A stretch of 24,000 nucleotides of DNA from Jiangellales bacterium (lineage in GTDB: Bacteria > Actinomycetota > Actinomycetes > Jiangellales > Jiangellaceae), in the NCBI GenBank assembly GCA_030447955.1, contig JAUJNY010000001.1, positions 315,381 through 339,380 on the forward strand, given 5' to 3'. How positions within the stretch are numbered: the first letter of the stretch is position 1; the number at the start of each line of letters is the position of its first letter. A program made the translations under genes and the position numbers. The notes beneath the pieces are model-generated. The model was not told the origin of the DNA, did not search any database, and saw only the letters and a list, made by a program, of their open reading frames with translations. Shown here in pieces: positions 606 through 23,803 of the stretch.

Positions 606-1721
606 CTAGGTCGGCTGCTTGGCCAGTGATTGCCGCGCCACCCGATGCTGCTGTCGTACGGCCTCCAGCGGCCAGCTGCGAGTTAGCGTCCAGGTCACGG
701 CAGCGCCGACGGCGTGCCGGGGGGGACCGGGCTCACGAATCAGGACCTCTCCAGTTGGGGTCTCGACGAGATGGTCCGAGTGCGGCCCGCGGAAACGGAC
801 AACCCGGAGCCGTCCACGCAGCGAGCCGCCGAATTGTGCCCAGCCGGGCCGCACCAGCAGCGGCACTGTGTCACCCACCCGTGCCGCCGGAGGACGCCCG
901 ACTGTGACCACGTGGCCTTGCACCGCCACCGAGCAGCGGTCGCTGCGGGCGTCCACGACAACGCCGTTCACGACTGAGGCGGGGCCGGTCAGCCGGGCGG
1001 CCCACACGTCGACGGGCTCGGCGTACACCTGTTGGGGGGTTCCCAGCTGAACGAGCCGCCCTGCGTTTAGCAGCGCGACCCGGTCGGCGAGTCCGAGCGC
1101 CTCCTCGGCGTCATGGGTCGCGTACAGGCCACCGGCGCCGCTCACCTCCCGCCGGACGACCAGCTCGTCAAGGAAAACCCCCCGGACGTGGGTGTCCAGA
1201 TGCGCTGTCGGCTCGTCGAAGAGATAGAGGGACGCCCGCCGGGCCAGCGCGCGGGCCAGTCCGACCCGCTGCTGCTCACCGCCCGAAAGCTCCGCCGGCC
1301 GTCGGTTGGCGAGGTGGGCGATCCGGAGCCGGTCGAGGATCTCCAGCGCCTCCTCACGGGCTGCCCGCCGGCCGGAGCCGCTGCGCCTGATCGGGTAAGC
1401 GACGGTGTCCAGCGCAGACAGGTGCGGCCAGAGGGCGTAGCTCTGGAAGACGACGGCGACGTCACGACGTTCCGGGGGCTCTGCCTGTCGCGAGGTCGCC
1501 ACCCGCCGACCGTTCAGCCAGACCTCTCCAGTCGTCGGCGGCCGGAATCCGGCGACGGTGTGCAGCAGGGTCGACTTGCCCGAGCCAGATGGGCCGAGGA
1601 GGGCCAGCATCTCCCCGCGGCGTACCCGCAGGCTCACTCCGTCCACGGCGATGGCCCCGTCGTAGGCGACGGTGAGGTCTCGCACCGCGACGACGTCTGG
1701 GCTGGGCGCGTCAGCGGGCAT
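606..1721 (-). CDS. ABC transporter ATP-binding protein (Fe3+/polyamine-type importer ATPase with C-terminal TOBE-like region); substrate not established
   Basis: 371 aa. Walker A GPSGSGKST, signature LSGGEQQRVGLARAL, Walker B LYLFDEPTAHLD. Overlaps the upstream permease gene by 11 nt. Confidence 0.9.
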   Translation of the reverse strand: MPADAPSPDVVAVRDLTVAYDGAIAVDGVSLRVRRGEMLALLGPSGSGKSTLLHTVAGFRPPTTGEVWLNGRRVATSRQAEPPERRDVAVVFQSYALWPHLSALDTVAYPIRRSGSGRRAAREEALEILDRLRIAHLANRRPAELSGGEQQRVGLARALARRASLYLFDEPTAHLDTHVRGVFLDELVVRREVSGAGGLYATHDAEEALGLADRVALLNAGRLVQLGTPQQVYAEPVDVWAARLTGPASVVNGVVVDARSDRCSVAVQGHVVTVGRPPAARVGDTVPLLVRPGWAQFGGSLRGRLRVVRFRGPHSDHLVETPTGEVLIREPGPPRHAVGAAVTWTLTRSWPLEAVRQQHRVARQSLAKQPT

Positions 1722-3381: not shown

Positions 3382-4374
3382 TCAGCCGCCGAAAATCTGC
3401 TCGTAGTCGGCCAGCAGGGCGTCCTTGTTCGCGGTGACCTGCGACCAGTTCGGATAGACCACCGGGGCGTCGGCTGGAACCTCTGGACCTTCGACGCCAG
3501 GCCGCGTTGGGTAGGAGCCCGCCTCCGCCACGACCTGCTGTCCCGGCTCGCTGACGACGTAGGAGATGAAGTCCTTGGCCAGCGTGGAATTTCCGCTCTC
3601 TCGGGCCAGCGCGATCGGCCCGTAGATCGCGACCGCGCCCGGTTCGGGCCACTCGACTTCGATCGGCGATCCGGAGTCGCGTGCCAGGTAGGCGGAGTTC
3701 GCGATCGTGATTCCGGCCTGATAGAGCCCCTGCGCGACCCCGGCCGTCACCTCGTCGGGCGTGCTGAGCTGCTCGGCCCCCCGCTCCTTCAGCGTGGAGT
3801 AGAAGTCGAGCCCGTAGCCGGGCGCCTGGGCGAAGTAGGCCAGCGCCCCGAGCGCGGAAGCTGCGGTGTTCGGGTCCGGGACGGCTACGGGCTCGTAGTC
3901 GGGGCCGGCGAGGTCTGACCAGCTGCTGGGTGCGGGGACGTCGTCGTGGTAGGCCGCCACCATGTACAGCAGCGCGACGCCCACGTAGTCGTCGGTCCGG
4001 AACTGCTCGGGGATGTCGGCTGCCTCCTCCGGGGTCCAGCCGCCGACCAGGTCCTGGTCGACGTACCCCTGCATGGAGAGCGGGTCGCAGGCCCAGATCA
4101 CGTCGGCCTCCAGCCCGCCTGACCGCACGTCCCCAGCGATCCTTGCGTTGAGGTCTCCGGTCGTGGCGCGGAACAGCTTGACGTCGGTGCCCGGGTGCTC
4201 CGACTCGAACTGCGAGATGACCGGCTGGATCGTCTCGTCACTGACGCAGGTATAGAGCGTGATCGCCTCCGACTCTCCTCCCGACCCCGAGCTGCAAGCG
4301 AGCGGCAGCAGGACGAGCGGCAGGAGGGCGAGCCGTCGCCTGAGGCCCAGACGTTCGGCTCCAGGCGCCAGCAT
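3382..4374 (-). CDS. ABC transporter substrate-binding lipoprotein (family 1 SBP, Fe3+/thiamine-like)
   Basis: Track ORF 3382-4428. I prefer the ATG at 4374 (MLAPGAERLGLRRRLALLPLVLLPLACSSGSGG), which gives a signal peptide and lipobox L-A-C. First gene of the SBP-permease-ATPase operon. No IdeR-like box seen upstream, so the iron assignment is weak. Confidence 0.82.
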   Translation of the reverse strand: MLAPGAERLGLRRRLALLPLVLLPLACSSGSGGESEAITLYTCVSDETIQPVISQFESEHPGTDVKLFRATTGDLNARIAGDVRSGGLEADVIWACDPLSMQGYVDQDLVGGWTPEEAADIPEQFRTDDYVGVALLYMVAAYHDDVPAPSSWSDLAGPDYEPVAVPDPNTAASALGALAYFAQAPGYGLDFYSTLKERGAEQLSTPDEVTAGVAQGLYQAGITIANSAYLARDSGSPIEVEWPEPGAVAIYGPIALARESGNSTLAKDFISYVVSEPGQQVVAEAGSYPTRPGVEGPEVPADAPVVYPNWSQVTANKDALLADYEQIFGG

Positions 4375-4532
4375 GCGACGGAGCCTACGGGCAGGTGGCG
4401 CGACCGTTGGAGGACGACTTCCCCGCACCGCGTAAGGCGGACGGCGCCTGAATTCGCCTGCCCGCGACGCCTCGTCGAGCCGAGGTGCCAGGGCGGCGCC
4501 GGGGCATGAGTCGGCGGTTCACGCGTTCAGGG

Positions 4533-5000
4533 TCAGAGCGACTTGGTCAGTCGGACGTCTTCCTCGGCGTAGCCGAGCGCCTCGTAGAAGGCGCGCGCGG
4601 CGCGGTTGGCGGCTCCCGTCTCGAGCGTGAGAAGGCAGAGCCCGCGTCGCCGAGCCCAGTCCTCCGCGGCGGCCATCAGCGCGCTGCCGACGCCACGGCG
4701 TACGGCCGAAGCAGCCACGACCAGCTCACCGACGTACCCGTCCAGCTGCCCGCTGAAGTGGCGTCGCTCGGACACAGCGACCAGGCCGAGCAGCTCTTGG
4801 CCGGCCACGGCGACCAGGACGGCTCGCCCAGCGTGCTCCGCGGTGTCCAACGACCCGGCCACCCAGGTGCGAACGGCACCGCGGACGGCGTCCGGATCGC
4901 GCCAGTCCGCGACGCCTTCTCCCAGCCGCGGTGCCAGGGCCATCGCGGCCGGCCGATCCGTTGGGTGGTAGCGGCGAACCTGCACGTTGGACGTGTCCAC
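4533..5000 (-). CDS. GNAT family N-acetyltransferase
   Basis: 155 aa. Acetyl-CoA binding motif RRGVGSALMAAAEDWARRRG, with typical GNAT length and end (ANRAARAFYEALGY). Confidence 0.85.
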   Translation of the reverse strand: MDTSNVQVRRYHPTDRPAAMALAPRLGEGVADWRDPDAVRGAVRTWVAGSLDTAEHAGRAVLVAVAGQELLGLVAVSERRHFSGQLDGYVGELVVAASAVRRGVGSALMAAAEDWARRRGLCLLTLETGAANRAARAFYEALGYAEEDVRLTKSL

Positions 5001-5044
5001 GCCTCGAGAGTGGCACCCCGCGCGGCCTTCAATAAAGGCCGAGG

Positions 5045-5677
5045 TCAGCTCGGCGGTGGAGTCCCTGCTGGAGCGCCGCTGGGCGGCGAAGCCTCGCTGG
5101 TCGCTGAAGCCTGGCTAGGCGGCGGAGCCTCGTCCGGCGGCGCAGCCTCGGCCGGCGGCGGTACATCTTCGCGCGGGTCCTCCAGGTGGGTGGTACCTGC
5201 CTCGCGGGCACGCTGGTACGACTCGCGGATCTCCGCCTCCGCCGCTCGCCGACCCACCCAGGTGGCGCCCTCGACCGACTTGCCTGGCTCGAGGTCCTTG
5301 TAGACCTCGAAAAAGTGCTGGATCTCCAGCCGGTCGTACTCCGGCATGTGGTGGATGTCGCGCAGGTGCTCCAGCCGCGGGTCCTCGGCTGGTACAGCGA
5401 TGACCTTGTCGTCGCCGCCCTTCTCGTCGCTCATCCGGAACATGCCGATCGCGCGGGCGCGGATGAGACAGCCGGGAAAGGTGGGCTCTTGCACGAGGAC
5501 GAGCACGTCGAGCGGGTCACCGTCGAGGCCGAGGGTGTCGTCCACGAACCCGTAGTCGGCGGGGTACTGCGTCGCGGTGAACAGCGTCCGGTCCAGCTTG
5601 ATGCGGCCGCTGACGTGGTCCAGCTCGTACTTGTTGCGGTTCCCTTTGGGGATCTCGATCGTGACGTCGAAGTCCAC
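5045..5677 (-). CDS. ppa: Inorganic pyrophosphatase (family I) with a ~46-aa Pro/Ala/Ser-rich C-terminal tail
   Basis: Track ORF extends to 6235, but homology begins at GTG 5677 ([21 protein letters not shown]...[21 protein letters not shown]...[15 protein letters not shown]...[13 protein letters not shown]). GGAG lies 7-10 nt upstream. Product is 210 aa. Confidence 0.92.
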
Positions 5678-5764
5678 GGCTGCTCCGCGTGCGAGGGTCG
5701 GGGTGCTCGGGGCCGCCCCAGTGTCCCCTACGGTCGAGAACGCTGACACGAGGCGTGAGGTGGT

Positions 5765-7243
5765 GTGCCGGTGCGGGAACGCAGGACGGCGCTGGCCGCG
5801 CTCGCGGCCGTGCTCGCCGGGCTCCTCGCCGCAGGCGTTGTCCTGGTGGCCAGTCCCGTTGCCCGGAACTCCGTCCGGAGCAGCGTCAGCGACGCCCTCG
5901 GGGCGGCGCAGCCCGGCGGGGCGAGCGATCGACCCCACGGAGGGGGGACGCGACCGCAGTCGCCGTCGGCATCGCAACCGGTGGTGCGGCTGGTGGCGGA
6001 CCCCGTGCTGGGCACCGCCCGACCCGAGCCGGTCCGCAAGGGACGCTCGTACGACTCCGTCCTCGACCCGCTGCTGGATGACTCCGCGCTGGGCAGCCGG
6101 GTCGGGGCCGCGGTGCTCGACCTGCGCGCCGGGCGCATCGTCTACGCACGCGGCTCGGGGCGGGAGTACACGCCGGCGAGCACCGCGAAGCTCTTCACCG
6201 CGCTTGCCGCGCTGGCCACTCTGGGACCGCAGCATCGGTTCGTGACGACAGTGGTGCCTGCCCGGCGGGGCCGCATCGTGCTGGTCGGTGGAGGCGACCC
6301 CCTGCTCTCGGCGACCACTCCCGGGGTGAGCTCCACCGACGTTCCCTCCCTGACGTCACTGCCCGCGCTCGCTCGGCACACCGCAGCACGCCTGCTCGAG
6401 CGCGACCGCTCCCGGGTGCGACTCGCGGTGGACGACTCGCTGTTCGTCGGACCTGCCGTGTCCGCCGCCTGGGAGAAGTCCTACGTCCCCTCCGGCGTCG
6501 TCGCGCCGGTCAGCGCCCTCGCCGTCGACGGCGGCCGGCTCGAGCCCGGCCTGGCCGCGCGGGCGCCGGATCCGGCGCTCGCGGCCGGCCGGGTGTTCGC
6601 CGCCGCGCTCGAACGGGCCGGAGTCGAGGTCGCCGGTCGAGTCGTCCGTACGGCGGCGCCACGTGACGCCGCGGCGCTGGCCCGGTCGAGGTCGGCGCCG
6701 CTGTCCGCCGTGGTCGAGCAGGTGCTGGCCAGCAGTGACAACGACGGCGCGGAGGTCCTCATCCGGCACGTCGCCCTCGCCGAGCAGCGCACAGGCTCCT
6801 TCGCCGGTTCGCGCCGCGCCCGTACGGCGGTGCTCCAGCGACTCGCCCTCCCGCTCGCGGACGCCGTGCTGCCCGACGGCAGCGGACTGGCTCGGGGTGC
6901 CCGGGTGAGCCCGCGCCTGCTGGTGAGGGCGTTGGGCGTCGCCGCCTCGACGAGGCACCCGGAGCTGCGCCCCGTCATCACCGGGCTACCGGTGGCCGGC
7001 TTCTCCGGGACCCTGGTCGACCGCTTCGTCGACGGGGCAGCGGCGTCGGCCGGTGGACTCGTCCGCGCCAAGACCGGGACCCTCACCGGGGTGACGTCCC
7101 TCGCCGGAGTCGCCACCTCCGCCGCCGGTCGGGTCCTGGCGTTCGCGCTGCTGGCCGATCACGTGGACCCCGCCGCCGTCCTTGAGGCGCGAGCAGCCCT
7201 CGACGAAGCCGCCGCGGCACTGGCCCAGTGCGGCTGTCGCTGA
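5765..7243 (+). CDS. dacB: D-alanyl-D-alanine carboxypeptidase/endopeptidase (PBP4, peptidase S13)
   Basis: 492 aa. N-terminal TM/signal segment. Motifs SxxK (ASTAKLF), SxN (SSDNDGAE) and KTG (KTGTLTG). Divergent from ppa, as in mycobacteria. Confidence 0.9.
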
Positions 7244-15300: not shown

Positions 15301-15690
15301 GTGGACTCCGCCCTGGCTGCCGCGCCGGTCACTGACCGGCTGTCCCTGCGCGGCATCCGTGTGCGCGGGCATCACGGCGTCCTGCCCGCCGAACGCCAAC
15401 GCGGCCAGGACTTCGTCGTCGATGTCGAGTTGTGGCTCGACACGCGGGCCGCCGCGGCGACCGACAACCTCGGTAGAACCGTCGACTACGGCGAGCTGGC
15501 GGCGGCGGTGGCGACCGTTGTCGGCGGTGAGCCGGTAGACCTCATCGAGACCTTGGCCGCGCGGATCGCGCAGACGTGCCTGGCCGAGGCGCTGGTCGCG
15601 GAGGTCCAGGTGAGCGTCCACAAGCCGCAGGCACCGCTGCCGGTGCCGGTGGCCGATGTGTGCGTGACGATCCGGAGGTCCCGCTCGTGA
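15301..15690 (+). CDS. folB: Dihydroneopterin aldolase
   Basis: GTG 15301 is preceded by AGGGAGGG (15291-15298). The track start at 15286 is a TTG. Motifs LRGIRVRGHHGV, TVDYGEL and VHKPQAPLP. Product is 129 aa. Confidence 0.9.
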   Translation: MDSALAAAPVTDRLSLRGIRVRGHHGVLPAERQRGQDFVVDVELWLDTRAAAATDNLGRTVDYGELAAAVATVVGGEPVDLIETLAARIAQTCLAEALVAEVQVSVHKPQAPLPVPVADVCVTIRRSRS

Positions 15691-16256
15691 CCAACGCACC
15701 GAACCCGTACATCGTGGACACCGACACCCTGACTGGCGACCTGCGGCCGTTGCGTCGCGCGGCCTTCGCGCTGGGCAGCAACCTCGGTTCGCGCCGCGAC
15801 AACCTGCAGGGGGCGGTCGACGCCCTGACCGAGGCCCCCGAGGTCTTCCCGGTCGCCGTGTCACCGGTGTACGAGGCCGACCCGGTCGGCGGCCCCGAGC
15901 AGCAGCCGCAGTTCCTCAACGCCGTACTGATCGTGGACACCACGCTGTCGGTGCACACGCTGCTCGACCGGGCGCTCGCCACCGAGGACGCCTTCGGCCG
16001 CGAGCGGGAGGTCCGCTGGGGCCCGCGTTCTCTCGACGTCGACCTGCTCGCGGTCGGCGACCGGGTCGTCGACGAGCCGGCGTGCACGATCCCGCACCCG
16101 CGGATCGCCGAGCGCGCGTTCGTGCTCGTCCCGTGGGCGGACGTCGACCCCGACTTCCCGGTGCCGGGGCTGGGCCGGGTGGCCGACCTACGCGACAAGG
16201 TGGGGTCGGCCGGCGTGACCCGCGTCGCCGACTTCTCCCTGCACCTGTCCGGCTGA
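15687..16256 (+). CDS. folK: 2-amino-4-hydroxy-6-hydroxymethyldihydropteridine diphosphokinase
   Basis: GTG 15687 overlaps the folB stop (GTGA). GGAGG lies at 15674-15678. Motifs FALGSNLG, RWGPRSLDVDLL and IPHPRIAERAFVLVPW. Product is 189 aa; the track ORF is over-extended to 15576. Confidence 0.9.
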   Translation: MTNAPNPYIVDTDTLTGDLRPLRRAAFALGSNLGSRRDNLQGAVDALTEAPEVFPVAVSPVYEADPVGGPEQQPQFLNAVLIVDTTLSVHTLLDRALATEDAFGREREVRWGPRSLDVDLLAVGDRVVDEPACTIPHPRIAERAFVLVPWADVDPDFPVPGLGRVADLRDKVGSAGVTRVADFSLHLSG

Positions 16257-16263
16257 CCGGCCG

Positions 16264-16743
16264 GTGACGCGGACGAGTCCGCGGCTGCTCGTCCTCCTCG
16301 GGCTCGCCGCCGCACCCGTCGGCTGGACCGTCGGCGGCATCGTCGACACGCTGGCGGTCGGCCCGCCGCAGGTCCCTCGGCTCACCCCGGTGCTCGTGGG
16401 CTTCCTTGCGGCGTTGCTCGCAGTGCTGGCCTTGGCCGCCCGGGGCTGGGTCGCCGAGCGGCGCTACGACCGCAGGATCGACGCGCTCGTCGTTGCCCGT
16501 CTCGTGGTGCTGGCCAAGGCGAGCGCCGTCTTCGGGGCGCTGGCGGCCGGCGGGTACGGCGGCTTCGCCGCACTGGCGCTGCGTGAGAGCGGCTTGTTCG
16601 CGGGCTCCGAGCGGCCCGTCGTCGCCGCGCTCACCGCGCTCGCCGGGGTCGCCGTCGCTGTCGCGGCGTGTTGGCTGGAGCGGTCGTGCACGGTCCCTCC
16701 ACGCGACGACGAGGAGGCGCCTCCGCTCGCGCCCTCGACGTGA
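16264..16743 (+). CDS. DUF3180 family integral membrane protein (conserved partner of the fol cluster)
   Basis: 159 aa with about 4 hydrophobic segments. GTG start lies 7 nt after the folK stop. Same position as the membrane protein following folK in mycobacteria. Confidence 0.8.
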   Translation: MTRTSPRLLVLLGLAAAPVGWTVGGIVDTLAVGPPQVPRLTPVLVGFLAALLAVLALAARGWVAERRYDRRIDALVVARLVVLAKASAVFGALAAGGYGGFAALALRESGLFAGSERPVVAALTALAGVAVAVAACWLERSCTVPPRDDEEAPPLAPST

Positions 16744-16808
16744 TCGCGCCTAATAGTTCGCTCACCCGCCGAGTGTCCCCCTCCCCGAGACATGGGACGC
16801 TTCGAGAC

Positions 16809-18078
16809 GTGACCGCGGCCCCACCGGATGCCTCGACGATGGCCGTGGGGGCGTTGGGGTGGCTTCTCGGGTCGGCGCGCGACACCCCGACGGTCTGGCG
16901 TGGGCGGGTACTGCGGACGATGACGATCTCGACCCCACGCTGTACAGCGGTGCGGCGGGAATCGTGCTCGCGTTGCTCGAGGGCTATGGCCACTTCGGTG
17001 ACGCCCGCTATGCCGATGCCGCCTTCCGCGGCGGCAGGGCATCGCCGCCGTCGTTCCCCACTGGCGTCCCTGCTCCTTGTACTTCGGTCTGACCGGGATG
17101 GCTGTCGCGTTGCGCGCGGTTGACGACCTGCTCGGAGACCCAGCTGTCTGCGTGGCGGCAGACCGCGCCTTGCAACTGGTGCGCTCACGGTTTGATGGGG
17201 AACGGTGGAGTGATCAGTTCGAACTGCTCGGCGGTAACGCCGGAATCGCGCTGGGCGCGCTGAGCGTCGGTGACGTCGAGTTGGCCATCCTCGCAGTGAC
17301 GCCGTACCTGCACAGAGCCGAACCGACCGCCAGCGGCGTCCAATGGGAGGTACGCGCTGGAATGCCGGCGCGGTTCCATCACATCTCACACGGAACGCTG
17401 GGCATCGTTCAGGCCTTGGCCGCCGTCGGCCGAGCGGCCGGTCGATCAGATCTGACCGAGCTGGCGCTGGCCGGTGCCGCGGACGTCGTGGCCCGCAGCG
17501 AGGCCGACCAAGAGGGCTTTCTGGTCCCGCACTCCGACCCGCAGCACAAGCCGGACCTGATCGAGCGCTACAGCTATGGGTGGTGCCACGGCCCGGCGGG
17601 GGACGCCCAAGTGTTCCGGCTGCTCGGGGCAGTGACCCACGACCCGGCGTGGCAAGCCCTGACGGACAGGTGCTGGCACACCGTCACCCAGTCCGGCCTG
17701 CCGAGACAGGTCTGACCCGGCTTTTGGGACAACAGCGGTCGCTGCTGCGGGACGGCGGGGGTGCTAGCGCTCGCGTGCGACCGCTACGTCGAACGGGGCG
17801 ACGAACTGAGCTTCGCGAACATCCTCGTCGACGACCTCGCATCGCGCGCAACCACGGACGCCGACGGTGTGCGCTGGTCGAACCGCGAGCACCGGCTCAC
17901 CCCGAGCAAGCTGCAGCCCCGGACCGGATGGGCGATGGGCAACGCCGGCATCGTTCGAGAGCTGCTCCGGTTCATCCGCGCCAGCAATGGAGGAGACCCG
18001 GCCTACGCCATTGCGTGGCCGGACCAGCCAGCCGCAAGTACGTCGGCTCCGTACCAGCGCACTGACGCGTCTCGCTAG
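16809..18078 (+). pseudogene. LanC-like (lanthionine synthetase C family) gene disrupted by at least one frameshift and an in-frame TGA
   Basis: LanC repeat motifs are spread over three frames. ALGWLLGSARDTP is in frame 0. DGLAWAGT...LYSGAAGIVLALLEGY is in frame 2. SLYFGLTGMAVAL, GNAGIALG, HISHGTLGIVQAL and YGWCHGPAGD are in frame 1. After the TGA at 17713-17715, PGFWDNSGRCCGTAGV...GWAMGNAGIV continues in frame 1. Confidence 0.7.
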
Positions 18079-18478
18079 CCGGTCCTCTTTGCGCACGTGG
18101 TTAGACGACCTCGCCTGTCGCTACTCGCTACTGGTGGCGGGGGACGAGCTGTACGCACTCCGCGCAGCGTTGGCGCGGCGCCGGTCCGCTCCACGGCAAC
18201 TCCGGGCGAACAAGGTAGCTGCGTCGCGTGATGGGGTGAGCTCCCGCGCCGGACTCCGCGTCATACGCGTGCACCACAGTGTCGTCAATGATATGGCGCC
18301 CAGCGGGGTCTTGATCCGCCTGCTCAACTGCCATCACCCATTCTGCCACAAGCCCATATTGCCACACAGTGCCCCGCGCCTACCACGGCCCGCGTGACGG
18401 TGAGCGATTCTCTGATTGCTTAGCGGACGTCCCCCGCTGGGAGCCGCTGGTCAGTGGAAGCATTCGGGAAGTTGGTCG

Positions 18479-19753
18479 TCAGTGGAGCTCTTCCACGTTC
18501 TCCAGTGGAGTCTTGAGCGGGGTGAGCGCCTTAGCGACATGGCCGGCGATGGCGAACGGGACAAGCAGCGCCGCGAAGCAAAGCACTGCCGTGGGAGCGC
18601 TGAACTGGTCCGAGAGCCAGCCGACCAGCAGCATGCCGAGCCAGACTAGTGACTGGGCGGCGAAGTTGGAGACAGCTCCCACGCGCCCGATGAGCCGATC
18701 TGGGACGACAACGGTGGTGTAGGCCTCCCACACCGACGCGGTCGGCACGGTAGCGAAAACCATCACGGAGGCCGCGAGGGCAATCTGCCACGGCCGCGAG
18801 GCCAGCGCCGCAAGGCCGAGGCAGACGACGTAGATCCAGCCGCCCAGCAGGAAGACCCGGCGTGAACCCAGTCTCCTGATGATGAACCCGGTCAGGACTG
18901 AGCCGAGGATTCCACCGGCCACGACGGCGGAGCTAGTCACTCCGATGATGTTCGGGTTCGCGCCCCGATGCTTGAGCAGCGCCACCAGCATCAACAGGAA
19001 GCTGTTGCCGACCATGTTGGCCACCGCGACCCAGGCTGTCATGTAGCGCAGGAACTCCTGCCTGCGCACGAAACTCATGCCCTCGCCGATGTCGGAGATC
19101 ACTCTGCCCCACCCGGCCCGGTCGCCCTCCTTGGCATGCTGGGTGCTCTCACCCCGCTCCGGGCCGAGCGGACGGCGAATCAGGGCCGAGCCCGCGGCGG
19201 CGAAGATGAAAGACAGTGCGTCGGCGCCGAAAGGCAGCCAGCGCGACACAGTGAACAGGAAGGCGGCCAGCGGCGAGCCAACGAGCTGCGCCGCCATCGC
19301 CATGCCCTGCTCCTGAGCCGCGCGGGCAGCGAACTGCTCCCGCGGTACGATCCGACGCAGCGCCGGCAGGACCGCGCTCTGCTTGACGCCGAGCAAAGCT
19401 CCGTCGACCAGCGAGGCGCCGGCCAGAAGTGGGATCAGCACGTGTCCGGCGTGAACGGACCAGGCCACCAAGGCCATGAGGACGGCCTCCGCCAGCGGCA
19501 CGGTGACGAGGATCAGCCTCCGGGAGACTCGGTCGGCCAACACCCCGCCCCACAGCGTGGTAAGGAGATAACCGATCCGTCCCGTCGCCGCAATCACACC
19601 CGCGTCAAACACCGAGCCGGTTGTGAACACCACCAGGAGCGGGAAGGCCATGACCGACACGTAGCTCCCGACAAGCGAGAACGCATTTCCGGTCCACCAG
19701 CACATGTAGTCGCGGTTGCGCCAAAGCGACGGCGGAGGTCCGCGGCCCTGCAT
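18479..19753 (-). CDS. MFS transporter (12-TM efflux type)
   Basis: Start is the ATG at 19753 (MQGRGPPPSLWRNRDYMCWWTGNAFSLVGS...). Product is 424 aa and hydrophobic throughout. The start overlaps the regulator stop by 1 nt (TGATG). The 633-aa track ORF is a spurious 5' extension. Confidence 0.88.
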   Translation of the reverse strand: MQGRGPPPSLWRNRDYMCWWTGNAFSLVGSYVSVMAFPLLVVFTTGSVFDAGVIAATGRIGYLLTTLWGGVLADRVSRRLILVTVPLAEAVLMALVAWSVHAGHVLIPLLAGASLVDGALLGVKQSAVLPALRRIVPREQFAARAAQEQGMAMAAQLVGSPLAAFLFTVSRWLPFGADALSFIFAAAGSALIRRPLGPERGESTQHAKEGDRAGWGRVISDIGEGMSFVRRQEFLRYMTAWVAVANMVGNSFLLMLVALLKHRGANPNIIGVTSSAVVAGGILGSVLTGFIIRRLGSRRVFLLGGWIYVVCLGLAALASRPWQIALAASVMVFATVPTASVWEAYTTVVVPDRLIGRVGAVSNFAAQSLVWLGMLLVGWLSDQFSAPTAVLCFAALLVPFAIAGHVAKALTPLKTPLENVEELH

Positions 19754-20364
19754 CAGGCGCCGCCGGAAATGAGCCGGCCGGGACGTGGGAAACCGTGCAG
19801 CTGAATGCTGTACTGCTCGGTGCCCTCCCGTGCGTGATCCCGATCGCGGGGTGTCGCGTCCACTGCTTCCCGAATCACATCGTTGACCCGTTCCATGAGC
19901 CCGCGCGCCTCCTGGGGTGTGAGCCAGATGGTCCAGTCGCTGTCCTCGGTGACACTCGCCCACTCCCGCGGCAGCTCGGAGCGCTCCAGCAACGAGTCCT
20001 GGAGCTGCGCCATGCCCTCCAGGACGGCTGCGTGAAGGAATGCCTGCCGAACGTGTTGGTCCTGGAGGTCGGACGGGTCCTCGTGACGCACGCGGGTGAA
20101 CTCGTGGGCCGCCCGCCACCACCGATCTCGTCTCGTTCCGCGCTCCCGGTCGTCCTCGATGAACCCGTGCAGGGCCAGCTGGCGCAGGTGGTAGCTGACG
20201 GTGCCGGTGTTCATCCCCAGCCGCGCAGCGAGCGAGGTGGAGGTCGCCGGGCCGTCCAGCCGCAGCATCTCCAGCATGCGGATCCGAACCGGATGCGCGA
20301 GGGCCTTCAACTGCGTCGGATCCGGTGTGACCTGGTTGAGATCTTGGCTCCTGGCCGCGGGCAT
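19753..20364 (-). CDS. ArsR-family winged helix-turn-helix transcriptional regulator
   Basis: 203 aa. LKALAHPVRIRMLEMLRLDGPATSTSLAARLGMNTGTVSYHLRQLALHGFI is a canonical ArsR/HTH_20 region. Translationally coupled to the MFS gene. Confidence 0.85.
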   Translation of the reverse strand: MPAARSQDLNQVTPDPTQLKALAHPVRIRMLEMLRLDGPATSTSLAARLGMNTGTVSYHLRQLALHGFIEDDRERGTRRDRWWRAAHEFTRVRHEDPSDLQDQHVRQAFLHAAVLEGMAQLQDSLLERSELPREWASVTEDSDWTIWLTPQEARGLMERVNDVIREAVDATPRDRDHAREGTEQYSIQLHGFPRPGRLISGGA

Positions 20365-20393
20365 ACCGGAGACAGTACAACCACAGAGGAAGG

Positions 20394-20415
20394 TCTGCAG
20401 AGGGCTCTCTGCAGA
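20394..20415. promoter_or_regulatory. Perfect inverted repeat TCTGCAGAG-GGCT-CTCTGCAGA; candidate operator of the ArsR-like regulator
   Basis: 9-bp perfect arms with a 4-bp spacer, 30-51 bp upstream of the regulator start codon (20364). Confidence 0.4.
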
Positions 20416-20502
20416 TTGTCCGTAGGGTTGACTTCCGCGACGCCGCAGCGGGCGTGCGGCTGACGGGATCGTCTACGGGTTCGGCGAGACCGGCGCTGAT
20501 CC

Positions 20503-20641
20503 ACGGCGGCAGCTACGGGATTGAGGTCAGCTCCACGTCGGCGGGGTTCACGCCGCGCACGTCTGCCTCCACCGAGCGGCGCAGCGCCTCATGCAAGGCG
20601 CGCGGCGTCAGCACGCCAAGGAATCGCTCGCCGTCGAGCAC
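20503..20641 (-). pseudogene. Fragment: diverged second copy of the last 43 codons plus ~10 nt of 3' flank of the CBS-domain ABC ATPase gene
   Basis: Aligns without indels to 22645-22785, with about 10 mismatches in ~135 nt by hand. It encodes AVLDGERFLGVLTPRALHEALRRSVEADVRGVNPADVELTSIP, against ...ELASIP in the intact gene. Confidence 0.8.
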
Positions 20642-20805
20642 GGCCAAGGCGAGCGCCGTCTTCGGAGCGCTGGCGGCCGGCGGGTACGGCGGGTTCGCCG
20701 CGCTGGCGCTGCGCGAGGCCGGCTTGTCCACGGGCTCCGAGCTGCCCGTCGTGACCGCGCTCACCGCGCTCGCTGGGGTGGCCGTGGCTGTCGCGGCCTG
20801 GTGGT
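20642..20805 (+). pseudogene. Fragment: diverged second copy of an internal segment of the DUF3180 gene
   Basis: Aligns without indels to 16512-16670, with about 15 mismatches in 159 nt by hand. It encodes KASAVFGALAAGGYGGFAALALREAGLSTGSELPVVTALTALAGVAVAVAAWW. Similarity fades after about 20800. Confidence 0.8.
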
Positions 20806-21215
20806 CACGCTTGGCGCATCGGCGGTCTCCTGCTGTCGGTGGCGGGAACACCTGGATCTGCGGCACACCCGAGGCGGACAGCGGCAGCGCCGAGGCGTCT
20901 GTCAGCCGTCCAGAGTGCGGTGTCAGGAGTGAGGTGCGTCGCCGCGAGGAGTTGCGCGTCGACGTAACCGATGCCGAGCCCGAACAGCTCACGGCGCTCG
21001 ATGAGCGTCAGGACTTCGTCCGTTGTCGCGACCACCGCCTGCGGCAAGCTGGTCAACAATCCGAGGACCTCGCGACGCTGAGAAAGTTGGCCGAGCGCGA
21101 GCTCGCCGACCACCCAGGGGTGACTCAGGACGAGGCCGCGCTCGAGCAGGTGCGCGAGCGGCGGCTGTCCGGTCCTCAGATGATCAATCCAGATCGACGT
21201 GTCGACGAGGATCAC
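20805..21215 (-). CDS. vapC: Type II toxin VapC (PIN-domain ribonuclease)
   Basis: 136 aa, GTG start. N-terminus (M)ILVDTSIWIDHL, then VVGELALG, GIGYVDAQLLA and LWTADRRL. Lies 5 nt downstream of vapB. Confidence 0.85.
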   Translation of the reverse strand: MILVDTSIWIDHLRTGQPPLAHLLERGLVLSHPWVVGELALGQLSQRREVLGLLTSLPQAVVATTDEVLTLIERRELFGLGIGYVDAQLLAATHLTPDTALWTADRRLGAAAVRLGCAADPGVPATDSRRPPMRQA

Positions 21216-21220
21216 GAGGG

Positions 21221-21409
21221 TTAGGCGCGGCGCCTGGGAGCCTCGGTGAGCGCAGGCTCACTGCCGCCCAGCCTCGACAGCCGCCGAGCGCTCTCTCGCT
21301 GGATGAGGGCGCGTAACGCCTCACGAACGAGAGCGCTCTTCTCCCTGGTCCCGGTGAGACGCTGCGCCTCGGCGACCAGGTCGTCGTCGAGCGCGAGGGT
21401 GGTCCTCAT
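21221..21409 (-). CDS. vapB: Type II antitoxin VapB
   Basis: 62 aa. MRTTLALDDDLVAEAQRLTGTREKSALVREALRALI is typical of the VapB antitoxin family. AAGGAG RBS lies 8-13 nt upstream. Confidence 0.8.
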   Translation of the reverse strand: MRTTLALDDDLVAEAQRLTGTREKSALVREALRALIQRESARRLSRLGGSEPALTEAPRRRA

Positions 21410-21670
21410 GATCGTTTATCTCCTTGACACCCACAGCGGCATCTCATGATGACACAAACCGTGCCGTGTCGACTCGGGTAGGGCGCTCGACCCACTCGCC
21501 CGCTGCCAGACCATCCCCGCCCGCCCGACAACAACACGACCACCGAGGAGTACCCGACCTGAAGGCCATCACCGCCTGATCCCTCGTGGTCCTCAGCACC
21601 GACGCATCGGCTGGCTGTGAGACGCCGGCGTCCGGCCTCGACGTTCCGGACCCGACGACTCGCCGTGACG

Positions 21671-22510
21671 CTAGGGCATCGACGCCGCCCGACCGTCGGC
21701 CAGCACCTCGCCCAGCCGCACCCAAGCCACGGTGGCGTCGTCCGCGCGTGGGTCGTCGCCGCTGCGTCGCGTCGTGGCCTCGGCCTCGCGCACCCTGCGG
21801 ATGACCTCGGCCGGGCCGGTGCAGTCGAGCATTCGCACGACCTCGGACCAGGTGGCCAGTTGGTACGGGTCCACGATGCGGCTAGCGCCATTGCTGAGGA
21901 GGCCCACCCCGATCCCGTCGGCCAACGGCAGACTCACGCGCACCGCCTCGTCCGCCGCCCGAGGGTCGTCCTTGGCGATCCAGTACCCCTCGGACCGGTT
22001 CCGCCGCCCGCGAAAACAATCGATGACCTCCTCGAGAGCCCGATCGTGCGCCGGGGTGCCGGGCGTGACACCGTCCAACGCCGCCATGCATTCACGTCGT
22101 ACCGCGACCTCACGCCCGTCCGTCACGACCCCGATCCCTCCCGCAGTCTGGTGCAGCAGGACGAAGGAGTCGCCGAGAACCAGGACGTCCAAGCGTTGCT
22201 GCTCGACGACGCGCACCAACGCCACGGTGGCCTGTGGGCTGCTCGGGTCGCCGATGTCGCAGGTGGCCCGATGATCTTCGGCCACGTCCTCGATGGACTC
22301 CGCCAGGATCGCGGCGAGGTCGCGCCCATCGTCGCGCGAAAGCCGACCGAGCAGCGCGCCCCCGAGGCGATGGGTGTACCAGGCGACGCCGTGACGACAG
22401 ATCGATTCGGTGCCGCGGATCCCGGCGCCGTCCAAGAGCGCGACGGCACCGGCCACCGAGCCGACGAAGTCCTCGTTGGATCGGTCCGCATGCCCGGCAC
22501 TAGTCAGCAT
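21671..22510 (-). CDS. PP2C_2-type (protein phosphatase 2C-like) domain protein
   Basis: Motif series SNEDF, ALLDGAG, LGDSF, LLSNGASR and DDATV is spaced as in PP2C-fold proteins. Start is uncertain: ATG 22510 (279 aa), GTG 22522, or the track start at 22600. Confidence 0.7.
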   Translation of the reverse strand: MLTSAGHADRSNEDFVGSVAGAVALLDGAGIRGTESICRHGVAWYTHRLGGALLGRLSRDDGRDLAAILAESIEDVAEDHRATCDIGDPSSPQATVALVRVVEQQRLDVLVLGDSFVLLHQTAGGIGVVTDGREVAVRRECMAALDGVTPGTPAHDRALEEVIDCFRGRRNRSEGYWIAKDDPRAADEAVRVSLPLADGIGVGLLSNGASRIVDPYQLATWSEVVRMLDCTGPAEVIRRVREAEATTRRSGDDPRADDATVAWVRLGEVLADGRAASMP

Positions 22511-22654
22511 CCGTACGTCCACAGCCGCACGGTATTTGGCGCTCCTCGACCCGGCGGGCGGGTTCTCCTGCCAGCAGCACTCAAAGCACGTTGCGACCAC
22601 AGCCAGCGGCGCAGCAGAGCCCCGGACGCACTTTCTTCGGTCGTACCGCGGCAG

Positions 22655-23803
22655 CTACGGGATCGAGGCCAGCTCCACGTCGGCGGGGTTCACGCCGCGT
22701 ACGTCTGCCTCCACCGAGCGGCGCAGCGCCTCGTGCAGGGCGCGCGGCGTCAACACGCCGAGGAAGCGCTCGCCATCCAGCACCGCCACCCAGCCGGCGT
22801 CCTCCTGCAGCATCGCGGAGAATGCCGTCTTGAGCGAGGCACGTGCCGGCACCCAGGCTTCCATGCGGCGTGCCCGGTCACGCACCAGACCGCCACCCAC
22901 CGCGTCGGCACCGACCCAGCCGTGCAGTCGTTCGGCGTCGTCGAGCACCACCCCCCAGCGAGCGCCCTGCGCGCGTAGCCGCGTCACCGCCTCGGCCAGC
23001 TGGTCGTCGAGGTGGACGACCGGAGGCAGCTCCAGGTCGTTCAGGTCGATCGGCGTCACCGACAGCCGCTTGAGGCCCCGGTCGGATCCGACGAAGTCCG
23101 CGACGAACGGGGTGGCCGGCGCGCCGAGCACCGTCGCCGGAGGGTCGTACTGCTCGAGGTGCCCGCCTTGGGCGAAGACCGCGATGCGGTCACCGAGCCG
23201 AACGGCCTCCTCGAGGTCATGGGTGACGAACAGGATCGTCTTGCAGACCTCGGCCTGCAGCCGCAGGAACTCCCCCTGCAGCTGCTCGCGCACCACCGGG
23301 TCGACGGCGCTGAACGGCTCGTCCATGAGCAGGACGGGCGGGTCCGCGGCCAGCGCGCGGGCGACACCGACCCGCTGGCGCTGGCCGCCGGAGAGCTGGT
23401 GGGGGTAGCGCCGCCCGTGCAGGTCCGGGTCCAGCCCGACCAGCTCGAGCAGCTCGCGGGCCCGATCCTGACGGCGCCGGCGGTCCCAGCCGAGGAGCTC
23501 CGGCACGGTGGCGACGTTGTCCTCCACCGTGCGATGCGGGAACAGCCCCACCTGCTGGATCACGTACCCCATGCCACGGCGCAGCCGTACGGGGTCACCA
23601 CCGGTCACGTCCTGCCCGTCGACGTAGATCCGGCCACTGGACGGCTCCACCAGCCGGTTGACCATCTTCATCGTCGTCGTCTTGCCGCAGCCGGACGGGC
23701 CGACGAGCGTCACCAGCGCCCCGGTAGGCACGTCCAGCGAGAGCTCCTGCACCGCGACGGTGCCGTCCTCATAGCGCTTGGAGACACGGTCCAGGCGGAT
23801 CAT
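22655..23803 (-). CDS. Glycine betaine/osmoprotectant-type ABC transporter ATP-binding protein with C-terminal tandem CBS domains (OpuCA/ProV-like)
   Basis: I prefer the ATG at 23803 (MIRLDRVSKRY), with GGAG 5-8 nt upstream. Walker A GPSGCGKTT, signature LSGGQRQRVGVARAL, Walker B LLMDEPFSAVD. CBS-like tail ...WVAVLDGERFLGVLTPRAL. Product is 382 aa. Confidence 0.9.
   Translation of the reverse strand: MIRLDRVSKRYEDGTVAVQELSLDVPTGALVTLVGPSGCGKTTTMKMVNRLVEPSSGRIYVDGQDVTGGDPVRLRRGMGYVIQQVGLFPHRTVEDNVATVPELLGWDRRRRQDRARELLELVGLDPDLHGRRYPHQLSGGQRQRVGVARALAADPPVLLMDEPFSAVDPVVREQLQGEFLRLQAEVCKTILFVTHDLEEAVRLGDRIAVFAQGGHLEQYDPPATVLGAPATPFVADFVGSDRGLKRLSVTPIDLNDLELPPVVHLDDQLAEAVTRLRAQGARWGVVLDDAERLHGWVGADAVGGGLVRDRARRMEAWVPARASLKTAFSAMLQEDAGWVAVLDGERFLGVLTPRALHEALRRSVEADVRGVNPADVELASIP

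Follow-up and report, generated by a model that had tools for sequence, protein, structure and literature searches.

A chimeric ATPase/DUF3180 joint in a Jiangellales genome, the probable scar of illegitimate recombination between two haplotypes of one locus

In homology-facilitated illegitimate recombination (HFIR), one end of an incoming DNA is exchanged by homology and the other is joined at a short G+C-rich microhomology, and DNA without a counterpart in the recipient is added. The process is on record for Acinetobacter, Streptococcus pneumoniae, Pseudomonas stutzeri and, as a low-frequency event, Escherichia coli conjugation (PMC3240628; refs 41, 42, 47 in PMC5361080). Displaced effector gene ends in type VI secretion system (T6SS) arrays of Vibrio and orphan Rhs 3' ends are natural scars that have been attributed to it (Kirchberger et al. 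2017, PMC5361080). On the scale of a species, small variable segments or recombination hot spots are found between conserved core genes (PMC2884548). Here, we describe a joint in a stretch of 24,000 nucleotides from a Jiangellales bacterium (contig JAUJNY010000001.1 of assembly GCA_030447955.1, positions 315,381 to 339,380; hereafter the window), at which the 3' end of a gene for an ATP-binding cassette (ABC) transporter ATPase abuts the middle of a DUF3180 gene, each as a second, diverged copy of a gene that is intact in the window. The joint is probably the scar of one illegitimate, microhomology-mediated event that linked two haplotypes of the same locus about 8-10% apart.

The window DNA is 71% G+C. 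Its self-comparison by blastn recovers two ungapped direct repeats, 20503-20646 against 22645-22788 (132/144 identical, 92%, E 3e-54) and 20642-20804 against 16512-16674 (147/163 identical, 90%, E 4e-59). Both have sharp limits, identity falling to background just beyond them, and no further repeat of like quality was found in the whole window. The features at the joint and their resident counterparts are as follows.

20503..20641, minus strand: second copy of the ATPase 3' end, consisting of 10 nt of 3' flank, the stop codon (20513-20515) and the final 42-43 codons of the CBS region, cut off at the joint
20642..20646, no strand: microhomology at the crossover, GGCCA (GCCA when compared with the resident ATPase allele), from the alignment
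20642..20804, plus strand: duplicate of codons 84-137 (of 159) from within DUF3180, without the 5' and 3' parts of the gene
20804..20815, no strand: second scar, where 105-106 nt (the last 23 DUF3180 codons and a spacer) are missing relative to the related contigs L005 and L006, after which the window is collinear with their PIN gene
16264..16743, plus strand: intact DUF3180 gene, the last of the fol cluster (Pfam PF11377, E 1e-25), containing the resident repeat 16512-16674
22645..22788, minus strand: resident copy of the repeated ATPase 3' end (self-comparison)
22655..23803, minus strand: intact gene for a ProV/OpuA-type osmoprotectant ABC transporter ATP-binding protein with a CBS tail, 382 aa (Pfam ABC_tran and CBS)

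Both fragments begin at the joint and read outwards, and their order, ATPase 3' end and then DUF3180 middle, is the reverse of that of the intact genes, running from end to start as in a tandem duplication. The offset of the ATPase repeat is exactly 2142 nt, 20641 corresponding to 22783. The two fragments overlap by GCCA (20643-20646) when the resident ATPase allele is used for comparison, and by GGCCA (20642-20646) when the alleles of the relatives L002 and L011, which have G there, are used. The joint is thus novel and of short microhomology, and identity to each parent ends at it. A first-pass annotation had described such a chimeric joint, with GCCA at the crossover and the reversed fragment order, and machine alignment bears this out; its coordinates were right to within 2-4 nt (it had placed 20641 opposite 22785 and ended the DUF3180 repeat at 20800/16670 in place of 20804/16674), and it had not recognized the right end of the DUF3180 fragment as a second scar. 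Its counts of one amino acid change in 43 codons for the ATPase pair and six in 53 codons for the DUF3180 pair also hold. These correspond to 10 synonymous and 1 non-synonymous differences in the former (dN/dS, the ratio of non-synonymous to synonymous divergence, 0.03; dS 0.33) and 9 synonymous and 7 non-synonymous differences in the latter (dN/dS 0.30), a calculation that the annotation had suggested.

The fragments are without evident function of their own. On a read-through open reading frame (ORF), the DUF3180 piece matches Pfam PF11377 positions 73-128. Two read-through ORFs, 20454-21224 (+) and 20513-20992 (-), are not considered genes: they owe their high third-position G+C to gene pieces that happen to be in the same phase, the phase switches at 20805 (the PIN start), and their Pfam matches are the DUF3180 piece or noise. 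Exact look-ups of both ORFs and of the neighbouring PIN protein found nothing on record, and no cassette-boundary repeats, promoter-like sites or terminator-like sites were found near the joint.

Three Logan contigs of sequencing run SRR24765286 are 100% identical to the window, L001 over 15658-17948, L007 over 17919-20588 and L008 over 20561-22730. L008, the product of an independent k=31 assembly, spans 20641/20642; the joint is therefore present in the reads and is no scaffolding product, which bears on the first-pass annotation's call for a check against an assembly chimera. The window proteins are recorded from the 1,025,267-nt NCBI contig and from Logan assemblies of the same run. The linkage around the joint turns on the sole run of at least 31 identical bases that is common to the two ATPase copies.

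20559..20590 and 22701..22732, no strand: 32-nt identical run (identical-run table; contig ends of L007 and L008)

The end of L007 and both the start and the end of L008 lie inside this run, because the k=31 graph must branch there. The pairing of the branches is not fixed by the k=31 contigs alone; the long NCBI contig pairs them as in the window.

Relatives of the locus were obtained as eight short contigs from other samples, through the 90% DUF3180 protein cluster and the clusters of the neighbouring proteins. Their DUF3180 proteins are ~97% identical to that of the window. The clade is sparsely sampled: the closest named DUF3180 protein is 46% identical (from a Jiangellaceae metagenome-assembled genome, MAG), and outside the 90% cluster the ATPases come no closer than 76-78% (Acidothermaceae and other actinomycete MAGs; the nearest named ones ~76%, Acidothermaceae/Jiangellales MAGs). 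No relative was found with the DUF3180 protein in the species-representative genome collection, where the clade is absent, and the joint with third codon positions masked had no match in genome_contigs or metagenome_contigs. A 166-kb contig (L009) that carries a member of the VapB cluster proved to be a different locus and was set aside.

By G+C phase and domain searches, the gene order in the window is the fol cluster, DUF3180, a LanC-like gene, a major facilitator superfamily (MFS) gene, an ArsR gene, a spacer, the ATPase fragment, the DUF3180 fragment, PIN/VapC, VapB, a PP2C-like gene, a spacer and the ATPase. The features between the intact genes, which may be assigned to two haplotypes, here called P and Q, are listed below.

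16776..16779, no strand: junction CCC(C), at which the 711-nt PIN-VapB cassette of L006 (728/729 to 1439/1440) is precisely absent
16778..18099, plus strand: LanC-like (lanthionine synthetase C-like) gene in several frames, first block of putative haplotype P (Pfam PF05147 at 17077-17715; NCBIfam LanL/LanM C-terminal region)
18479..19753, minus strand: MFS transporter gene, 424 aa, putative haplotype P (Pfam MFS_1/MFS_3; gene call in L007)
19753..20364, minus strand: gene for an ArsR/SmtB-type helix-turn-helix (HTH) regulator, 203 aa, putative haplotype P (NCBIfam NF033788; Pfam HTH_5/HTH_20 on record)
20416..20502, no strand: spacer between the regulator and the ATPase 3' end (type 1), the same as before the ATPase 3' end in L004
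20805..21215, minus strand: PIN-domain (VapC-like) toxin gene, 136 aa, putative haplotype Q (Pfam PF01850, third-position G+C phase), its tail altered by a 1-nt indel
21221..21409, minus strand: VapB antitoxin gene, 62 aa, putative haplotype Q (Pfam PF09957 on record; cluster names)
21671..22510, minus strand: PP2C-like gene, 279 aa, putative haplotype Q (weak Pfam PP2C_2; homologues carry PF13672)
22542..22654, no strand: alternative ATPase-proximal spacer (type 2), common to L006 and L012

The DUF3180/ProV-type ATPase interval is hypervariable. Six cassette arrangements occur among the eight contigs in the equivalent of window 16744-22654, from no island to combinations of PIN-VapB, LanC-like, MFS-ArsR and GrpB-fragment cassettes. 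In L002 and L003, DUF3180 and the ATPase are convergent and 81 nt apart, with no island. L004 carries DUF3180, a PIN remnant, VapB, MFS, ArsR and the ATPase 3' end; its positions 4109-6362 align unbroken to window 18381-20635, an alignment that takes in the same spacer and, at the edge of the contig, 124 nt of ATPase 3' end. L005 and L012 (= L013) start like L004; on the ATPase side, the island of L012 ends in a GrpB fragment and a homologue of the spacer at window 22542-22654. L006 carries DUF3180, an intact PIN gene, VapB and the LanC-like gene and, farther on, the 22542-22654-type spacer and the ATPase. The contexts of the two ATPase ends of the window thus adjoin ATPase 3' ends in different relatives (L004 vs L006 and L012). 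PIN-VapB adjoins DUF3180 in all island-bearing relatives whose DUF3180 side is visible (L004, L005, L006 and L012), and the DUF3180-PIN-VapB stretch of L005, L006 and L012 is collinear with window 20642-21464 except for the 105-106 nt gap. Two haplotypes, L006 and L012/L013, co-occur in run SRR12717697.

Illegitimate scars elsewhere at the locus also count for the proposed origin of the joint. The CCC junction after the intact DUF3180 gene is a further illegitimate deletion or insertion scar. In L011 (GCA_017884105.1; reverse complement, 1-100), an internal PIN fragment equivalent to window 20965-21042 abuts the ATPase 3' flank, which is another deletion scar, in another lineage. As a separate observation, L004 (SRR25621607) ends at its position 6363, 6-7 nt short of the position equivalent to the joint; this may be a coincidence, or a graph branch that stems from a similar rearrangement or from a strain mixture.

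An alignment of seven ATPase 3' ends gives the ATPase fragment seven private substitutions, six of them synonymous, including a first-position Leu change (CTG>TTG). The probability of at least six synonymous changes among seven without selection is 0.003 under uniform mutation, 0.017 with GC>AT changes only and 0.045 with GC>AT transitions only. With six of seven private changes synonymous, most of the divergence was therefore acquired within a working gene, and this signature of purifying selection suggests that the fragment evolved as a working gene in another lineage. Over its 163 nt, the DUF3180 fragment shows 16 differences to the resident copy, 11 to L002/L003, 12 to L005, 16 to L006 and 19 to L004. 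The resident has eight private changes in the repeated segment. The fragment has five, three of which are non-synonymous (R>L, A>T, C>W) and fall on residues that are invariant in five other distinct alleles, which looks like some decay after truncation. The pieces assigned to P (resident DUF3180 and ATPase fragment) are farther from the relatives than those assigned to Q in seven of eight comparisons, with one tie, and these distances weakly favour the pairing of the pieces. A different-lineage origin of the two sides of the joint is suggested by the 8-10% divergence, by the synonymous bias and by the separate contexts in relatives. The first-pass annotation had suggested that the copies diverged as functional orthologues in separate lineages; the synonymous bias supports this, as does the position of the DUF3180 fragment, nearer to L002/L003/L005 than to the resident copy.

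From the sequence we infer a lateral meeting of two haplotypes, in whichever direction the transfer ran, and a one-step event of the HFIR type with a homologous crossover at the far end. In the ancestral layout, DUF3180 (the fol cluster end, plus strand) and the ProV-type ATPase (minus strand) would face each other with variable cassettes between them. Haplotype P would have run from DUF3180 through LanC-like, MFS, ArsR and the type 1 spacer to the ATPase, and would have been cut 43 codons before the ATPase stop. Haplotype Q, with DUF3180, PIN, VapB, PP2C-like, the type 2 spacer and the ATPase, would be represented from DUF3180 codon 84 onwards. DNA of one haplotype would have entered a cell with the other; one end would have been exchanged by homologous recombination in the shared flanking genes, and the other joined at GGCCA, linking codon -43 of the P ATPase to codon 84 of the Q DUF3180. 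The predicted product is an intact P DUF3180 gene, an intact ATPase gene (Q at least at its 3' end), both cassette sets and two useless back-to-back pieces in 20503-20804. The DUF3180 piece may have lost its terminal 105-106 nt later, or the donor may already have lacked them. A two-step route, in which a segment of a relative integrates to give a merodiploid and a microhomology deletion follows, gives the same product as HFIR.

The likeness to HFIR lies in the short G+C-rich microhomology, here GGCCA, and in the added DNA. Experimental HFIR joints are in the range of 3-8 nt. The present case differs in that it is read from sequence only, in that the 'foreign' DNA comes from an allelic form of the locus itself, so that the illegitimate end left duplicated gene pieces, and in that the host is an uncultured actinomycete without known competence. 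To our knowledge, only conjugative chromosomal transfer is known in this phylum, and delivery by conjugation would be a guess. The HFIR-type joint of diverged orthologues that the first-pass annotation had proposed is supported by the joint itself, its presence in reads, the private changes and the separate contexts in relatives.

Several points weigh against this reconstruction. The joint is seen solely in data of one sequencing run (SRR24765286). The selection test comprises seven substitutions only and is marginal (P 0.045) when the mutation model with the strongest bias is applied. Distances in the DUF3180 segment form a star-like pattern, and the topology is compatible with the fragment and the resident copy being sisters. 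The ATPase end of L004, which has a P-type context, differs from the intact copy at 7/124 positions and from the fragment at 13/124; context and ATPase allele are imperfectly linked, and these lineages evidently recombine. No donor or donor-like genome and no recombination tract boundary were identified, nor was a close relative of either parental haplotype found among the sequences searched, and the complete Q haplotype with the PP2C-like gene occurs in no relative. A sliding-window comparison of the ATPase with L002 and L011 gave no breakpoint; its divergence profile mirrors that of the control pair, L011 vs L002, and therefore reflects gene and domain conservation.

The best surviving alternative, which we consider unlikely, is a deletion between long-lived paralogues: two complete copies of the region would have diverged under selection, and a recent deletion at GGCCA would have run from ATPase copy 1 into DUF3180 copy 2. 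It has the same topology as the favoured reconstruction and accounts both for the synonymous bias of the ATPase fragment and for the microhomology. However, a second fol-cluster end and a second transporter operon would have had to be kept over dS 0.2-0.3, and no trace of them was seen; the relatives have a single DUF3180 gene and a single ATPase gene at the locus, where the two flank contexts are allelic variants of one locus, not two loci. Were a relative the source of the second copy, the explanation would amount to the two-step version of recombination between haplotypes.

Slightly less probable still is a tandem duplication in place, in which an ancestor with the full island (DUF3180-PIN-VapB-LanC-MFS-ArsR-ATPase) was duplicated from mid-DUF3180 to the ATPase 3' end through GGCCA, and the copies then lost complementary cassettes and drifted 8-10% apart. 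RecA-independent tandem-duplication joints at short junction homologies have reportedly been characterized in enterobacteria by Roth, Reams and colleagues. The joint in the window resembles them in running from segment end to segment start, exactly the order of such a joint, in its junction homology of a few bases, and in direct repeats that homologous recombination could collapse. PIN-VapB beside DUF3180 and MFS-ArsR beside the ATPase are also the usual positions in relatives, so that reciprocal loss gives the observed order, and one site (column 130) is common to the DUF3180 fragment and the resident copy only. The joint differs from the enterobacterial ones in copies that are 8-10% apart, of unlike gene content, and with a truncated copy that bears past purifying selection, so that it cannot represent a single template duplicated recently; the dN/dS of 0.03 for the ATPase pair and the contents of the two units (LanC-MFS-ArsR in unit 1, PIN-VapB-PP2C in unit 2) likewise speak against a recent event. 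An old one would leave the truncated ATPase copy non-coding throughout its divergence, yet six of its seven private changes are synonymous, and the 302 nt, although 8-10% diverged, are free of indels. It would also require extra replacement steps, since the PP2C-like block and the type 2 spacer are missing in copy 1 and the type 1 spacer in copy 2. Finally, a duplication as old as the lineage split would be expected in some relatives, and it is present in 0 of the 8 contigs.

An artefact or a wrong linkage, through chimeric reads or through a P-type chromosome and a separate 2142-nt circular or tandem molecule mispaired at the 32-nt run, is very improbable: every dataset that bears the joint is indeed run SRR24765286, a sample with very many contigs, and L008 starts and ends in the same 32-nt sequence with a length of 2170 nt (2142 + 28), as a circle would in a k=31 graph, but the joint agrees between two assemblers (the 1.03-Mb NCBI contig and Logan), ordinary reads span a 32-nt repeat, a de Bruijn assembler cannot make an overlap of 4-5 nt, a chimeric read would need to link, in duplication order, two points within one small locus, and a circle would itself require the biological formation of the same illegitimate joint. 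Insertion of a mobile element (an insertion sequence, transposon or integrative element) was rejected, as no transposase or integrase match in Pfam or NCBIfam was found among the island genes, and the island has no tRNA and no terminal repeats.

Recombination between haplotypes, the favoured origin of the joint, may also be set beside the arrays of Rhs, contact-dependent inhibition (CDI) and T6SS effector-immunity genes. There, too, a variant module anchored in conserved sequence displaces the resident, and the truncated old 3' end stays beside the new copy. At the present locus, however, the genes encode the CBS tail of an ABC ATPase and a membrane DUF3180 protein rather than variable-tipped toxins, a single event is seen in place of an array, and the residual piece lacks a partner immunity gene and is under no plausible selection. 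The variable segments between core genes are similar in being short intervals with strain-specific cassettes, where flanking homology allows exchange, as in the six arrangements found here; the difference is that a single joint preserves the mechanism of one exchange. As a more tentative extension, which we regard as possible and no better than that, the DUF3180/ProV interval would be a hot spot in which cassettes are shuffled by illegitimate recombination anchored in core genes, among co-occurring lineages about 90% identical. The window would then hold an unresolved HFIR intermediate with both parental gene ends, maybe held by the imported vapBC.

Some observations concern single genes. The LanC-like block is 91.6% identical to L006 1440-2759, and in L006 (1471-2740) as well as in the window the gene is split over two or more reading frames, possibly as a shared pseudogene or through a programmed shift. 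The MFS gene is ~90% identical to those of L004, L012 and L013. The PIN protein has 79% amino acid identity to that of L006; a 1-nt indel alters its C-terminal tail, and the stop of the PIN ORF now lies at 20805, flush with the DUF3180 fragment. The PP2C-like gene is present at this locus in none of the eight contigs, and a search of JGI metagenomes with its protein gave 80 loci, the best at 63% identity, none of them beside DUF3180 or ProV. Homologues 60-67% identical occur in Micromonospora and Streptomyces; several are labelled 'integrase' yet carry PF13672 (PP2C_2) only, and these labels are probably propagated misannotation. The intact ATPase, whose exact protein is on record, scores 326.1 bits against NCBIfam TIGR01186 (proV), for which the cut-off is 326.6. 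Elsewhere in the window, a 60-nt direct repeat lies at 4437-4494 and 4881-4940 (80% identity, E 2e-6). A stretch of 75% similarity between 1202-1291 and 23307-23397 pairs a second ABC ATPase gene (606-1721, minus strand) with the ProV-type ATPase; the similarity is that of the signature/Walker B region conserved among paralogues and does not mark a repeat element.

The joint is an unusually legible instance of a known process, and it represents no new gene, RNA, system or kind of element. The direct repeats of 144 and 163 nt could resolve the structure by homologous recombination. Recombination of the ATPase copies would excise the 2142-nt unit with vapBC and restore a P-type locus, whereas recombination of the DUF3180 copies would leave a DUF3180 gene without its last 23 codons. 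Speculatively, the loss of vapBC that goes with the 2142-nt unit may help to retain the unit. Such joints are usually erased or unrecognizable; here the parental gene ends, the microhomology and the parental contexts in relatives have been kept, and one island exchange between diverged lineages can thus be reconstructed base by base. The locus provides a natural example of how islands between core genes gain cassettes without mobile-element enzymes, and it is one at which population-level long-read data could measure such exchange events.

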